The notes beneath the pieces are model-generated. The model did not search any database. It was not told the DNA's origin and saw only the letters and a list, made by a program, of their open reading frames with translations. A stretch of DNA of 64,000 nt from Candidatus Niyogibacteria bacterium (lineage in GTDB: Bacteria > Patescibacteriota > Minisyncoccia > HO2-45-28). The stretch covers positions 5,292 through 69,291 of the forward strand of contig JACOYI010000004.1 in assembly GCA_016181935.1 (NCBI GenBank), given 5' to 3'. Each line of letters starts with the position of its first letter. Within the stretch, counting starts at the first letter, position 1. A program made the translations under genes and the position numbers. Below are positions 6,281-58,556 of the stretch, piece after piece.

Positions 6281-6316
6281 AAGGGTTACCCTTAGGATCG
6301 GATAAGGGTAACCCTT
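6281..6316. repeat. REP-like palindromic element (AAGGGTTACCCTT-N10-AAGGGTAACCCTT)
   Basis: Inverted 13-mers with 10-nt spacer aggatcggat, between groEL stop and next gene. Confidence 0.7.
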
Positions 6317-6326
6317 GGGGGGGCGC

Positions 6327-7970
6327 TTACATACCCATTCCGTTCGGGTCGGGCATTGGAGGCGGGGTTTCTTTCTTCGGTTTTTCCGCCACCACCGCCT
6401 CGGTCGTCAAAAACATCGCGGCGGCGGACGCGGCATTTTGCAAGGTTGAACGCGTTACTTTGGTCGGGTCCACGATTCCCGCTTCGAGCATGTCCTCGTA
6501 CTGGGCGGTCGCGGCATTATAGCCGATATTCCCCTTTTTCTTGCGGACATTATCCAGAATCACGGAACCCGACACGCCCGCGTTCTCCGCGATCTGCCAC
6601 AAGGGTTTTTCGATGGCGTTGCGCACGATCTTATGCGCGAGCCATTCGTCGTGATTTTCCTCGTTGTCCTCCATGTTCAGCAAACTCTTGTCGAGCACCG
6701 CGGCCGCGCGCACGAACGCCACGCCGCCCCCCGGCACGATTCCCTCCTCGATGGCCGCCTTGGTTGCCGATACCGCATCCTCGATACGATGCTGTTTTTC
6801 CTTTTGTTCGACTTCCGTTGCCGCGCCTACGCGGATGACCGCGACGCCGCCCGCGAGTTTCGCCAAACGCTCCTGCAATTTTTCGCGGTCGTAGTCCGAA
6901 TCCGCTTTTTCCATCTGCTTTTTCAACTGGGAGACGCGCTTGTCGATCTCCCCCTTTTTCCCTTTACCGCCGACAATGGTCGTATTGTCCTTGGTCGCAA
7001 TGACTTTTGATGCGGTTCCCAATACCGAAAGGTCCGCGGCATCCAATTTCATACCCGCCTCCTCCGATACGACTTTGGCGCCCGTCACAATAGCGATGTC
7101 TTCGAGCATTTCCTTGCGGCGGTCGCCATATCCGGGGGCTTTGACCGCGAGCGCATGAAATGCGCCACGCAATTTGTTCACCACCAGTGTCGCCAATGCC
7201 TCACCCTCCACCTCCTCCGCAATGATGACGAGTTCTTTCTTGCCCGCCTGCGCCATCTTTTCCAACACCGGAAGAATATCCGAGATCGCCGTTATTTTTT
7301 TATCCGTAATTAAAATTTTCGGGTCTTCATACACCGCCTCCATCCGCTCGGCATTCGTGATCATATACGCCGATGCGAATCCGCGGTCGAACTGCAAACC
7401 CTCGACGAGTTCGTACGACATGCCGAAGCTCGGCGACGCCTCCACCGTTACCACGCCGTCTTTGCCGACTTTGTGGATGACCTCGGCGATCTTGTCGCCG
7501 ATGGCCGCATCTTTTGCCGAGATGGTCGCCACCTGCGCGATCTCCTCCTTTTTCGAAATGGGGGTCGAAAGTTTCTTCAATTCCTCCACGACTTTTGCCG
7601 TGGCTTTTTCAATACCCACGCGCAACCCCATCGGGTTGGTGCCGGCCGCGATATTTTTCAATCCTTCCGTGATAATGGCCTGCGCCAAGAGCGTCGCCGT
7701 GGTCGTGCCATCGCCCGCCACATCATTGGTCTTGGTCGCGACCTCCTTCACGATCTCGGCGCCCATGTTCTCGACTTTATCCTCAAGTTCGATCTCTTTT
7801 GCAATGGTCACCCCGTCATTCGTGATGGTCGGCGCGCCATATCCTTTATCCAAAACAACATTGCGCCCCTTGGGACCCAGCGTGATCTTCACCGCATTCG
7901 CAAGCGCATCCACGCCGCGCTTCAGCGCTTCGCGGGCCTTGGCATCAAATAAAATTTGTTTGGCTGCCAT
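6327..7970 (-). CDS. groEL: chaperonin GroEL
   Basis: 547 aa, unmistakable Cpn60 sequence incl. C-terminal GM repeat. Confidence 0.97.
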
Positions 7971-7994
7971 ATTATTTATAGTGAGCTAGTCGAA

Positions 7995-56972: not shown

Positions 56973-56991
56973 TTACTATTACTATAAACGC

Positions 56992-58446
56992 ATGTCGGCA
57001 CCATCGTCTAAAATATTGCTTGGCGTTTTTATTGCCGCATACATCCTTGTTTTCGGAACGCTCACCCTCCTCCGCCACGCCGATTTTCAAACGCAGGCAT
57101 GGGATATGGGTATTTTCCAGCAAACATTCTGGAATACCATCCATGGCCGCGTGATGCAAAACACCATCGAGGAAATTCCGAATCACCTCGGCATTCACAT
57201 GAGCCCGCTCTTGTTCCTTCTCGTACCGGGCTTTGCCTTGTTCCCGAGTCCTTACTATTTATTGGTGATACAAACCCTGGCCTTGGCGCTGGGCGCGATC
57301 CCCGCTTACCTGCTTGCGCTGCACATTCTCAAAAACCGGCGCCTCGCGCTGTTTTTTGCGGGCGCGTATCTTCTGTACCCGCCGCTTCATTGGGTCAACT
57401 GGTTCGATTTCCACGAGATCGCTTTTTTCGTGCCGCTCGCGCTCGGCGGGCTGTATTTTCTGGAACAGCGACGCTGGGGCTGGGCATGGATTTTTCTCAT
57501 TCTTGCGGCAAGCACAAAAGAAGACGCAATCCTCGCGGTCGCGGCGATCGGTTTTTGGCTTTTTGTTAAAAAATACCCTTTATCAACAGTTTATCCACCT
57601 AAAGGACTAACCTTTGGGTTTTTGACCAAAGAACGCATCCATGGGGCGCTTCTTTTGACTGTCATGCTCGGCTATTTTATCATCGCCACCAAACTTATCA
57701 TGCCGGCGCTCGGCGGCGGACTTGTGCGATTAGATCGCTATGCCGAGCTGGGAGAAACCTCGCTCGCAATCGTCAAAAATCTTCTTCTTCATCCATCGCT
57801 TCTCATTCAAACCGTTATTACGGTTGAAAAAATCAATTATGTTTTCTGGCTCCTTGCCTCTTTCGCGTTCCTGCCTCTTGCCGCCGGACGCGCGCTGATT
57901 CTTGCGGCACCCGGCTTTCTTGAAAATTTGCTGACGGCATTTAAATTCCAATTTTCATCTTTTTATCAATATGACGCCATCCTCATTCCGGCGCTTCTTG
58001 TCGCGTCGCTCTACGGCTTCGACCGCCTTCGTGTCCGGTGGCCGAAACAAGAAAAAGTATTCGCGAGTATTTTTTTGATCATAGTGGGTGGCGCATTCGT
58101 TCTTCGCTCACCCATCGGCCCTCTTTCGTTTCCCACGGAATTTTTCCGCGCCAACCCCCATCGGGACGCCTATCGCGCAATGATCCGTGAGGTTCCCAAC
58201 GAAGCAAGCGTTGCCGCATACACGAATCTCATTCCCCATCTTTCAAATCGCGAACACGTCTACATGCTTGGCCAGGAACCGTTTACGGCAGACGTCATAC
58301 TCCTCGACGGGGGTGATTATTTCGGCTTTCCGGATCCCAAAGCCTTCCAAATATATGCGGATTCATACGCTCTATCGGAACTTTATGACATTCGCATCAT
58401 TGATGAACGGTATTTCATCTTCACCCGTAAAAATTTTTCGCAATAA
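56992..58446 (+). CDS. DUF2079 family membrane protein
   Basis: 484 aa from ATG 56992; multi-TM; AWDMGIFQQTFWNT..HF.P pattern typical of DUF2079. Confidence 0.6.
   Translation: MSAPSSKILLGVFIAAYILVFGTLTLLRHADFQTQAWDMGIFQQTFWNTIHGRVMQNTIEEIPNHLGIHMSPLLFLLVPGFALFPSPYYLLVIQTLALALGAIPAYLLALHILKNRRLALFFAGAYLLYPPLHWVNWFDFHEIAFFVPLALGGLYFLEQRRWGWAWIFLILAASTKEDAILAVAAIGFWLFVKKYPLSTVYPPKGLTFGFLTKERIHGALLLTVMLGYFIIATKLIMPALGGGLVRLDRYAELGETSLAIVKNLLLHPSLLIQTVITVEKINYVFWLLASFAFLPLAAGRALILAAPGFLENLLTAFKFQFSSFYQYDAILIPALLVASLYGFDRLRVRWPKQEKVFASIFLIIVGGAFVLRSPIGPLSFPTEFFRANPHRDAYRAMIREVPNEASVAAYTNLIPHLSNREHVYMLGQEPFTADVILLDGGDYFGFPDPKAFQIYADSYALSELYDIRIIDERYFIFTRKNFSQ
57580..57612. repeat. degenerate REP copy inside DUF2079 coding sequence
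   Basis: tttatccacctaaaggactaacctttgggtt. Confidence 0.45.
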
Positions 58447-58556
58447 AAACCCAAAGGGTAGTCCTTTGTGTTAACAATCTGTGGATAACTAAAGCAAAAA
58501 GGCAACTTATGCACAGGTTATCCACCCAAAGGACTACCCTTTGGGTGTTTATCCAC
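58447..58556. repeat. BIME-like composite REP
   Basis: CCCAAAGGGTAGTCCTTTG-..ctgtggataact..-GGTTATCCACCCAAAGGACTACCCTTTGGG-tgtttatccac. Confidence 0.85.

Follow-up and report, generated by a model that had tools for sequence, protein, structure and literature searches.

The DNA examined here is a 64-kb window, meaning the whole stretch that was analysed, from the chromosome of Candidatus Niyogibacteria, a bacterium of the Candidate Phyla Radiation (CPR). Counts refer to this window unless another scope is named. It is core CPR chromosome, carrying rpoB and rpoC together with genes for RNase J, FtsW, alanine racemase, SecG, NifU, GroES/GroEL, UvrA, a short UvrC and a release factor (RF), as well as 23S-5S rRNA with a group I intron. 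Copies of a short palindromic repeat are dispersed among these genes, and an open reading frame (ORF) at 48660-49373 on the minus strand, starting with MERKF, encodes a 237-aa Y1 HUH transposase which resembles the REP-associated tyrosine transposases (RAYTs; REP, repetitive extragenic palindrome). The evidence supports a dispersed, mostly intergenic palindromic family of the kind described as REPs, bacterial interspersed mosaic elements (BIMEs) or REP doublets forming hairpins (REPINs), tied to a RAYT-type Y1 transposase. An earlier note on this DNA had proposed a REP/BIME-like family with a core typical of REPs recognised by RAYTs. The proposal is supported in part: the transposase gene, which the note had overlooked, lies in the window, flanked by repeats, and the closest relative points to concerted evolution and shows gain and loss of copies.

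When up to one mismatch is allowed, the 13-mer core AAGGGTAGTCCTT has 17 matches in 11 clusters, spread across 54 kb, where dinucleotide-preserving shuffles give an expected 0.02. The same repeat families were recovered by unbiased repeat finding. Fourteen of the 17 cores are fully intergenic (P=1.1e-10; the intergenic share of the window is about 12.5%), and counting by cluster gives the same bias (8/11, P=7e-6), in agreement with the intergenic preference that the earlier note had wanted checked. The copies are clumped at 4-15 kb and 48-59 kb, with none at 16-48 kb. The positions listed previously hold to within about 10-40 nt; an exact copy at 4384-4396 had been overlooked, and the supposed core copies at 6281 and 10741 are diverged short-form variants rather than exact cores.

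The basic unit is a hairpin of CCCAAAGG, a GTAGT loop and CCTTTGGG, with an 8-bp stem and an asymmetric 5-nt loop. It is found in three arrangements: as singlets (4378-4400 and 49187-49213), in a short form and in a long form. The short form is an inverted core doublet of 45-60 nt with the conserved spacer AGGAAyCGGAAA (8399-8446, 10774-10826, 13755-13814 and, nested, 15189-15268), and diverged variants of it lie at 6281-6316 and 10741-10771 (AAGGGTTACCCTT / AAGGGTTCCCCTT). It had been described as inverted 13-mers with a 10-11-nt spacer; the inverted doublet is retained, with the spacer refined as above and with 25-nt arms at 13755-13814. The long form is an asymmetric unit of about 40 nt, (TTATCCACA)-gt-(TTATCCAC)-CCAAAGG-ACTAC-CCTTTGG, in which one or two TTATCCAC(A) boxes precede the hairpin. 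Its copies lie at 48620-48660, 49393-49437, 49456-49496, 50259-50304, 57580-57623, 58443-58488 and 58507-58556, and two pairs of them form inverted composites. The 35-bp palindrome formerly taken as the extended form has no perfect occurrence: the best matches carry 2 and 3 mismatches (50270-50304 and 58518-58552), and the arms of this 'extended form' are DnaA-box-like TTATCCACA motifs. Inverted doublets able to form long hairpins are those at 13755-13814 (25-nt perfect arms), 49393-49499 and 58443-58556. Sequences at the hairpin foot vary by form (CCAC, CCCC, CTCA). The GTAG that had been read as a hallmark of REPs sits in the hairpin loop and not at the foot, which is its place in canonical REPs (PMC6006769). 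Nor is it conserved: the loop reads GGAGT in the closest relative and is unrelated in other lineages. Rfam returned no known RNA family at any repeat of the window. The copies are the following (dG, folding free energy; CDS, coding sequence):

4378-4400, plus strand: single hairpin CTCAAAGG-GTAGT-CCTTTGGG, 3' of the LemA gene, with an exact core at 4384-4396.
6281-6316, plus strand: variant short-form doublet AAGGGTTACCCTT-AGGATCGGAT-AAGGGTAACCCTT, downstream of groEL; 14-bp stem, dG -14.3.
8399-8446, plus strand: short-form doublet, GGAGT loop variant, upstream of groES.
10741-10826: variant half-unit (10741-10771), then short-form doublet (10774-10826), at the uvrA 3' end.
13755-13814, plus strand: short-form doublet, its 25-nt arms perfectly matched around a spacer of 10 nt, in the gap from which uvrA and uvrC diverge; dG -30.2.
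15148-15176, plus strand: degenerate, older short-form remnant CCCAAAGAGTGATCCTTAAGAATCGGAGC, inside the 3' coding part of uvrC.
15189-15268: nested double doublet overlapping the uvrC stop codon, missing from the relative; dG -23.8.
48620-48660, minus strand: long-form unit, two boxes and hairpin, directly 3' of the transposase stop codon.
49187-49213, minus strand: hairpin within the transposase CDS, TTTCCCAAAGG-ACTAC-CCTTTGGGAAA in gene sense; 11-bp stem, DNA dG -11.4.
49393-49499: composite of two inverted long-form units, between the transposase gene and a TPR gene; dG -32.9.
50259-50304, plus strand: long-form unit with 2 mismatches to the 35-bp palindrome, between the gene of a 1211-aa protein and the TPR gene.
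57580-57623, plus strand: degenerate long-form unit inside the CDS of a DUF2079 membrane protein, translated in frame as LSTVYPPKGLTFGFL.
58443-58556: inverted pair of long-form units (a composite of about 106 nt), placed exactly between the DUF2079 and GT2 stop codons, the two genes being convergent; dG -36.1.

In the variant doublet at 6281-6316 both arms depart from the main type in a mutually complementary way. The doublet at 13755-13814 adjoins a consensus uvrA promoter (13749-13721), and the relative's locus L121 has no doublet at this place. In the composite at 49393-49499 the hairpins are outermost and the TTATCCAC boxes innermost; its proximal unit (49393-49437) lies within the promoter region of the transposase gene, and its distal, inverted unit spans 49456-49496. 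On the minus strand the hairpin at 4378-4400 is followed by a T-run, which gives it a terminator-like look. A reading of the repeats as terminators was rejected: 3 of about 25 units qualify, and genuine terminators here consist of GC-rich stems followed by T-runs. Logan contigs of the same organism, which are independent short-read assemblies, match the sequence at 100% identity, so the repeats are not the assembly artefact that had been considered; such contigs end inside repeat units, one of them within the 58443-58556 composite. Those reached through exact-protein look-ups added 2 kb of sequence outside the window.

The transposase is 100% identical to NCBI protein P0001 ('transposase, Candidatus Niyogibacteria') and its gene is present in one copy in the window. 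Read from the translation, its motifs are YHVFNRG, NHFHLLL (HUH), YIHLNPL, which contains the catalytic Tyr in the class-2 arrangement Y...NP, and YSSY. Pfam PF01797 (Y1_Tnp) matches with 33.1 bits at a gathering cutoff of 23, and NCBIfam NF047646 (REP_Tyr_transpos) gives a partial match to residues 77-158 (39.1 bits, cutoff 80, E 6.5e-10). By sequence alone there were only weak matches to ISDra2. An AlphaFold2 (AF2) model based on 64 homologues reached a pLDDT (predicted local distance difference test) of 87.7 and a pTM (predicted template modelling score) of 0.87. Foldseek against the PDB placed 4ER8_A, E. coli TnpAREP bound to a REP hairpin, at the top (E 1e-5, TM 0.65 by target length), and ISDra2 TnpA and IS608 TnpA next. 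The protein has a helical C-terminal extension. It was considered whether a C-terminal helix-turn-helix (HTH) like DnaA domain IV reads the TTATCCACA boxes, as in subclass 2.1.2, and this was rejected: Pfam gave no C-terminal HTH match (Bac_DnaA_C, HTH_23, HTH_28) up to E 10, and DnaA domain IV is not among the Foldseek matches of the model.

Hairpin copies lie upstream of, inside and downstream of the transposase gene, and the downstream, internal and upstream-proximal ones share one orientation. The internal hairpin (49187-49213) had been noticed, at 49185, in the earlier note, which missed that it lies in a real CDS, that of the transposase. It is translated in frame as FPKGLPFGK (residues 54-62) and sits in an internal loop (residues 51-60, pLDDT 60), the model's only one of low confidence.

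Much of the evidence comes from comparison with the nearest relative, GCA_016177385.1 (loci L036 and L121), whose transposase is 78% and UvrC 82% identical. Gene order is shared around the transposase (L036) and around uvrA-uvrC-secG-rpoC (L121), so that the gene, single copy in the window, is syntenic at 78% protein identity. Six orthologous hairpin sites can be compared: one 3' of the gene, one inside its CDS, two upstream, one upstream of the TPR gene and one inside DUF2079. Where the window has CCCAAAGG-GTAGT-CCTTTGGG, the relative has CCCCGAGG-GGAGT-CCTCGGGG, and all six differ alike, by two compensatory base-pair changes and one loop change. The relative's transposase thus carries its own hairpin variant at the internal site; the orthologue of the 49393-49499 composite lies at L036 9896-9980, that of the 50259-50304 copy at L036 9083, and the copy at L036:9962 is a hybrid. 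Identical changes at six sites are implausible by independent point mutation, and from them we infer copy-replacement, that is, concerted evolution among the hairpin sites. The TTATCCACA/TTATCCAC boxes remained constant between both genomes while the hairpin changed.

Whole doublets have also been gained or lost, as three clean comparisons of filled and empty sites show. The 58443-58552 composite (106 nt) is absent from L036, where the stop codons overlap and both protein C-termini are conserved. The uvrA|uvrC doublet (13755-13814) and the cluster 3' of uvrC (15189-15268) are absent from L121. Conversely, the relative alone has a 57-nt insert with a short-form doublet 3' of rpoC (L121 8838-8895), where the window is uninterrupted (~20443). 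Target duplications are not visible at any of the filled or empty sites. Copies inside coding sequences vary as well: at the same place in DUF2079 there is one in-frame unit in the window and two in the relative (a doublet, +17 aa), and an in-frame repeat insert in the PMT gene is found in the relative's L036 only. This last insert, in a predicted glycosyltransferase (L036:3190-3250), is a triple, partly overlapping unit in frame, ISPRTPLWESQKGVLGE. The decayed remnant at 15148-15176 has a similarly decayed copy in the relative (15130-15410 against L121 3600-3740, read by eye). The UvrC tail ...AKGSPQG* is supplied by the 15189-15268 repeat, and the relative's UvrC has no such tail; the ending ...KGSPQG* agrees with NCBI protein P0121 (Candidatus Niyogibacteria), to which the window UvrC is 100% identical, and this upholds the previous suggestion that the repeat-derived KGSP tail on uvrC is real. 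Taken at the level of sequence, these differences show repeat turnover since the two genomes diverged. Presence or absence between close relatives, together with in-frame copies in CDSs, excludes a fixed operator, including the operator of one regulon that the earlier note had allowed for.

Homologues of the transposase number more than 5,000, and every named one among the best 120 belongs to Patescibacteria. For 80 metagenomic homologue loci (43-56% identity) the gene was cut into 60-nt bins and the 14-mers of each bin were sought outside the gene. Only nt 120-180 recurs there, in 49 places at 18 loci; each of the nine remaining bins gives 0-9 places. The recurring segment is each genome's own hairpin. 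The extragenic hairpins lie 30-60 nt before the start codon, just before a -10 hexamer, and 7-30 nt past the stop, in the orientation of the internal copy. Stems and loops are lineage-specific (CCGTGAAGG-TTTAA, CCCATAGG-CGAGG, CAACCGAGG-CCTTG), and the frame AGG-N5-CCT is common to all. A perfect stem of at least 5 bp is present at codons 52-55, in constant codon phase, at 23 of 82 homologous loci; for stems of at least 6 bp the internal-hairpin bin has 21 loci and the control bins 1-12. Three positions past a conserved Gly the codon is NCC and the residue without exception S, P, T or A, so that the nucleotide constraint dictates the amino acid and not the reverse. Codon-anchored covariation of the internal hairpin exceeds shuffles at pairs 1-7, a result from 17 aligned sequences with a gappy loop alignment that is not leaned on here. 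A scan of reference genomes with CAAAGGGTAGTCCTTTG, in a collection that excludes the source genome, gave 35 singletons, which is about chance level (~70 expected by our own estimate). The sole true relative among them is L016, where a 54%-identical homologue has flanking CAAAGG-GTCGA/GTAGT-CCTTTG hairpins and no internal copy.

The boxes of the long form have a wider distribution than the hairpins. As cited in PMC6006769, TTATCCACA equals the consensus sequence of high-affinity DnaA boxes. The window has 17 TTATCCAC sites where 1.2 are expected, ten of them in long-form units. Three more, at 27517 (upstream of rpoB), 38448 and 54426, are followed after about 10 nt by -35/-10-like hexamers. 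Over all CPR loci, a -10-like hexamer follows TTATCCACA at 20-50 nt on the 3' side in 47 cases, most often at 30-39 nt; shuffled 9-mers give about 17. By these sequence statistics, TTATCCACA looks like a general promoter-upstream motif in these Parcubacteria genomes, of which no report was found in the literature searched. TTATCCACA was seen at ordinary promoters in the window at 215-222, 27517-27524, 38448-38455 and 54426-54433, in the relative at L036:4844, and at many of loci L039-L106. An enrichment of TTATCCAC beside transposase genes is probably non-specific, because the 'near' sequence consists of promoters and the 'far' sequence is mostly coding. Since the boxes would be a general promoter-upstream motif, the long-form unit seems to have been copied from the promoter and end region of the transposase gene itself. 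An origin of REPINs from the ends of an IS200-like ancestor, as has been proposed in print (bioRxiv 10.1101/2021.07.10.451892), would agree with this. GC skew is uniformly negative across the window, with a monotonic cumulative skew and no switch, and neither dnaA nor dnaN is among its annotated or scanned ORFs. The boxes were also considered as a replication origin, which was rejected on the GC skew and the general promoter association.

From these observations it is likely that the Y1 enzyme reads the hairpin top in single-stranded DNA, mobilising or replacing the doublets that bear such hairpins, as a REP/RAYT-type system. At its centre would stand the Y1 HUH enzyme (48660-49373), probably single-copy and vertically inherited. 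It would recognise the hairpin (stem ...AAAGG, 5-nt loop, CCTTT...) in single-stranded DNA, for instance at a replication fork, and would cut and rejoin the DNA beside it, so copying or replacing hairpin-bearing units around the chromosome. The mobile units would be REPIN-like inverted doublets of the short and the long form, each hairpin of the latter bringing one or two TTATCCACA boxes copied from the flanks of the transposase gene. Copies of the hairpin in the promoter and CDS may, in addition, feed back on expression of the enzyme. We infer the catalysis, the site of cleavage and a regulatory role of whatever kind, this feedback included, just as we do the single-stranded substrate and the claim that the enzyme, not recombination alone, catalyses the spread.

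Several points weigh against this proposal. Binding and cutting of the hairpins by the enzyme is a prediction, and the NCBIfam RAYT equivalog model gives 39 bits where its cutoff is 80. The 5' hairpin foot of a canonical REP bears GT[AG]G (PMC6006769), and this guide was not found at the foot of the window hairpins. The copies that directly flank the gene are in direct and not inverted orientation. In the relative the dispersed short-form doublet retains GTAGT while the gene-proximal copies have GGAGT, so that the short and long forms may differ in specificity rather than share one. In most of the distant relatives the hairpin lies within 300 nt of the gene, and its proliferation may be peculiar to the lineage of the window; the copy count itself covers this 64-kb window, from which the earlier note had extrapolated to hundreds genome-wide.

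The phase-locked hairpin inside the transposase gene is one unusual feature. Its fixed position and codon phase in about 30% of the sampled CPR homologues, with lineage-specific stems, raise the possibility that it is a functional cis-element rather than a tolerated insertion, forming a self-contained circuit with the promoter copy and TTATCCACA; we regard this as a tentative idea that may well be wrong. The internal hairpin could serve autoregulation, as a site bound on the DNA or mRNA of the gene, or could be a 'master copy' that keeps enzyme specificity and repeat sequence physically linked. The circuit would be made up of this hairpin, the copy in the -35 region of the promoter and the TTATCCACA motif. 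If true, it might couple repeat mobilisation to the transcription or replication state in genome-reduced bacteria.

The alternative that survives best is an autonomous IS200/IS605-type element, selfish rather than a domesticated single-copy RAYT-type gene, whose dispersed hairpins would be derivatives like miniature inverted-repeat transposable elements (MITEs). The direct orientation of the upstream-proximal, internal and downstream hairpins recalls the left- and right-end hairpins of IS608, and IS200-family TnpA structures are also significant fold matches. Such an origin is nevertheless unlikely for a gene with one copy in 64 kb that is syntenic in a genome with 78% protein identity. The protein has 237 aa against about 150 aa, with no tnpB or near-identical second copy in the window (PMC6006769 Table 1), and its tyrosine motif is the Y...NP of class 2 and not the Y...Q of IS200. 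Moreover, most homologue clusters occur on one or a few contigs.

A role of the hairpins as host cis-elements, with the transposase incidental, fares worse. They would then act in transcription termination or mRNA stabilisation, or be the operator of a regulon for stress and repair (groESL, uvrA, uvrC), with copies kept alike by selection and recombination. Copies do adjoin groES, groEL, uvrA and uvrC, T-runs follow three units, and an inverted repeat with a 10-nt spacer is superficially like the CIRCE operator (controlling inverted repeat of chaperone expression). Yet the uvrA|uvrC and uvrC-3' copies are absent in the closest relative, which has one 3' of rpoC instead, copies are found in frame inside three CDSs, and the cognate hairpin is always found with the transposase gene over many lineages, all of which makes this explanation quite improbable. 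The weakest alternative, that the long form is a DnaA-box cluster (an origin, a DnaA-titration site or DnaA-regulated promoters) and the hairpin secondary, could appeal to the consensus high-affinity box (PMC6006769), its 17 sites against 1.2 expected and its constancy while the hairpin changed, and is very improbable in view of the missing GC-skew switch, the missing dnaA and dnaN among the annotated ORFs of the window, the many unrelated promoters at which the box precedes a -10 hexamer by 30-50 nt, a short form that has no boxes, and a transposase in which Pfam and Foldseek found no DnaA-like domain.

Other features of the window were recorded alongside the repeat family. The 23S rRNA gene (32374-35985, minus strand) is 3612 nt long, compared with 2925 nt for the model, and includes a group I intron at 33126-33324 (Rfam RF00028, 29 bits, below the gathering score) and a LAGLIDADG endonuclease ORF at 33200-33685; a second LAGLIDADG ORF (31865-32311) lies between 23S and 5S, and there is no adjacent 16S gene. 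The 23S intron and endonuclease and the unlinked 16S gene give a picture typical of CPR. Two tRNA-Cys(GCA) genes (30472-30554 and 30967-31040) lie about 500 nt apart, 3' of the 5S rRNA. An unrelated low-complexity palindromic repeat, CTGGAAGCTAG / TTCCAGCTTCTAG, is present in the uvrC-secG spacer (15290-15375) and in the 23S region (33846-33928, 34539-34607 and 35109-35375); the relative's uvrC-secG spacer has none, and a related CTGGGAG tandem array lies inside uvrA (12553-12605). UvrC (13833-15215; homologues P0122-P0240) has about 420-470 aa in the clade, where a typical UvrC has about 600 aa, and the clade's UvrC gave no Pfam match for the C-terminal helix-hairpin-helix domain of typical UvrC. 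Such a short UvrC seems to be usual in the listed CPR homologues. A 72-nt direct repeat (10051-10122 and 10613-10684, 94% identical) marks the 5' ends of adjacent minus-strand ORFs, 9665-10210 and 10215-10742, which encode about 180 aa each and have no Pfam match; it is probably a tandem gene duplication including the leader regions. At the start of the window a cytosine DNA methylase gene (PF00145) overlaps that of a Vsr very-short-patch repair endonuclease (268-1996; cf. L117), and a Logan contig of the same organism places a Fic-domain gene just upstream of the window.

Among known systems, the REP/RAYT-type system proposed here is comparable to the proteobacterial REP/BIME and REPIN-RAYT systems (E. 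coli, subclass 2.2 or group 2; Pseudomonas, subclass 2.5 or group 3). Common to both are short, species-specific, mostly intergenic hairpins, frequent inverted doublets forming long hairpins, a syntenic Y1 HUH gene with Y...NP (one copy in the window) among its cognate repeats, a repeat sequence that shifts with lineage, and, for the enzyme, 4ER8 as top structural match. The window repeats differ in that they have no GT[AG]G guide at the foot, a stem of only about 8 bp with a 5-nt loop and the frame AGG-N5-CCT as the conserved part, and gene-flanking copies that are direct rather than inverted. The enzyme differs in its 237 aa with a helical C-terminal extension and in its place below the NCBIfam RAYT cutoff, and it belongs to a CPR bacterium, whose genome is very small. 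REPIN-RAYT systems have been regarded as 'replicators within genomes', ancient and inherited vertically, and the documented cases come essentially from RAYT groups 2 and 3 of Proteobacteria; the searchable literature held no report of REP/RAYT systems in CPR/Patescibacteria. The present case would extend them to CPR, whose genomes of about 1 Mb are strongly streamlined, so that proliferating repeats are unexpected there. The in-frame hairpins in the transposase, the membrane protein and the glycosyltransferase also bear on CPR annotation, through spurious KGSP tails and an altered UvrC C-terminus.

With the IS200/IS605 elements (IS608, ISDra2) the window system shares the Y1 HUH fold, same-strand hairpins at both gene ends and the lack of target-site duplication. 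Unlike them it is single-copy in the window and syntenic, has Y...NP rather than Y...Q and a longer protein, is without tnpB in the window, and has hairpins dispersed without the gene. In-frame REP copies inside tnpAREP, in a peripheral loop between the HUH and Tyr motifs, have been called unique to subclass 2.4 (PMC6006769). This subclass (RAYT group 4; Cyanobacteria and Bacteroidetes) is alike in having in-frame REP copies inside the transposase gene; however, its inserts lie between HUH and Tyr and vary in length, whereas the window hairpin lies before HUH at a fixed position and phase, and its signature of WQ and YIxNNP is unlike that of the window enzyme.

A further counterpart of the enzyme is TnpAY1 subclass 2.1 (Quentin et al., 2018, PMC6006769), which corresponds to RAYT group 1 (Bertels et al., 2017), together with the TIRYTs, transposases associated with terminal inverted repeats (Di Nocera et al., 2013). 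Its signature is NH[YF]H, FQ/W[EQ], Y[IV]HLNP and an SS tail, with a median of 238 aa and low copy number (PMC6006769 Table 1). The window protein is alike, with NHFH, FQ, YIHLNP, YSSY and 237 aa, and at the level of these sequence motifs it fits TnpAY1 subclass 2.1 / RAYT group 1. The Bac_DnaA_C/HTH tail was not detected in it, and, as compared with TIRYTs, the flanks of its gene are without the consensus GGGGWSAS. Published analyses did not find REP-like sequences for subclass 2.1 (PMC6006769), and reviews associate only RAYT groups 2 and 3 with REPINs. The window gene differs from this picture, as it has hairpins on both flanks and inside it and goes together with dispersed ones, which would extend the REP association to a Y1 subclass described as REP-less and of unknown role. 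The two genomes also offer a testable specificity pair: their enzymes are 78% identical, and two compensatory base pairs and one loop base set their hairpins apart. The window thus most likely holds a REP/RAYT-like system, in which a HUH gene present once in the window would spread hairpins; reports of such a system had been lacking for this lineage and for this enzyme subclass.

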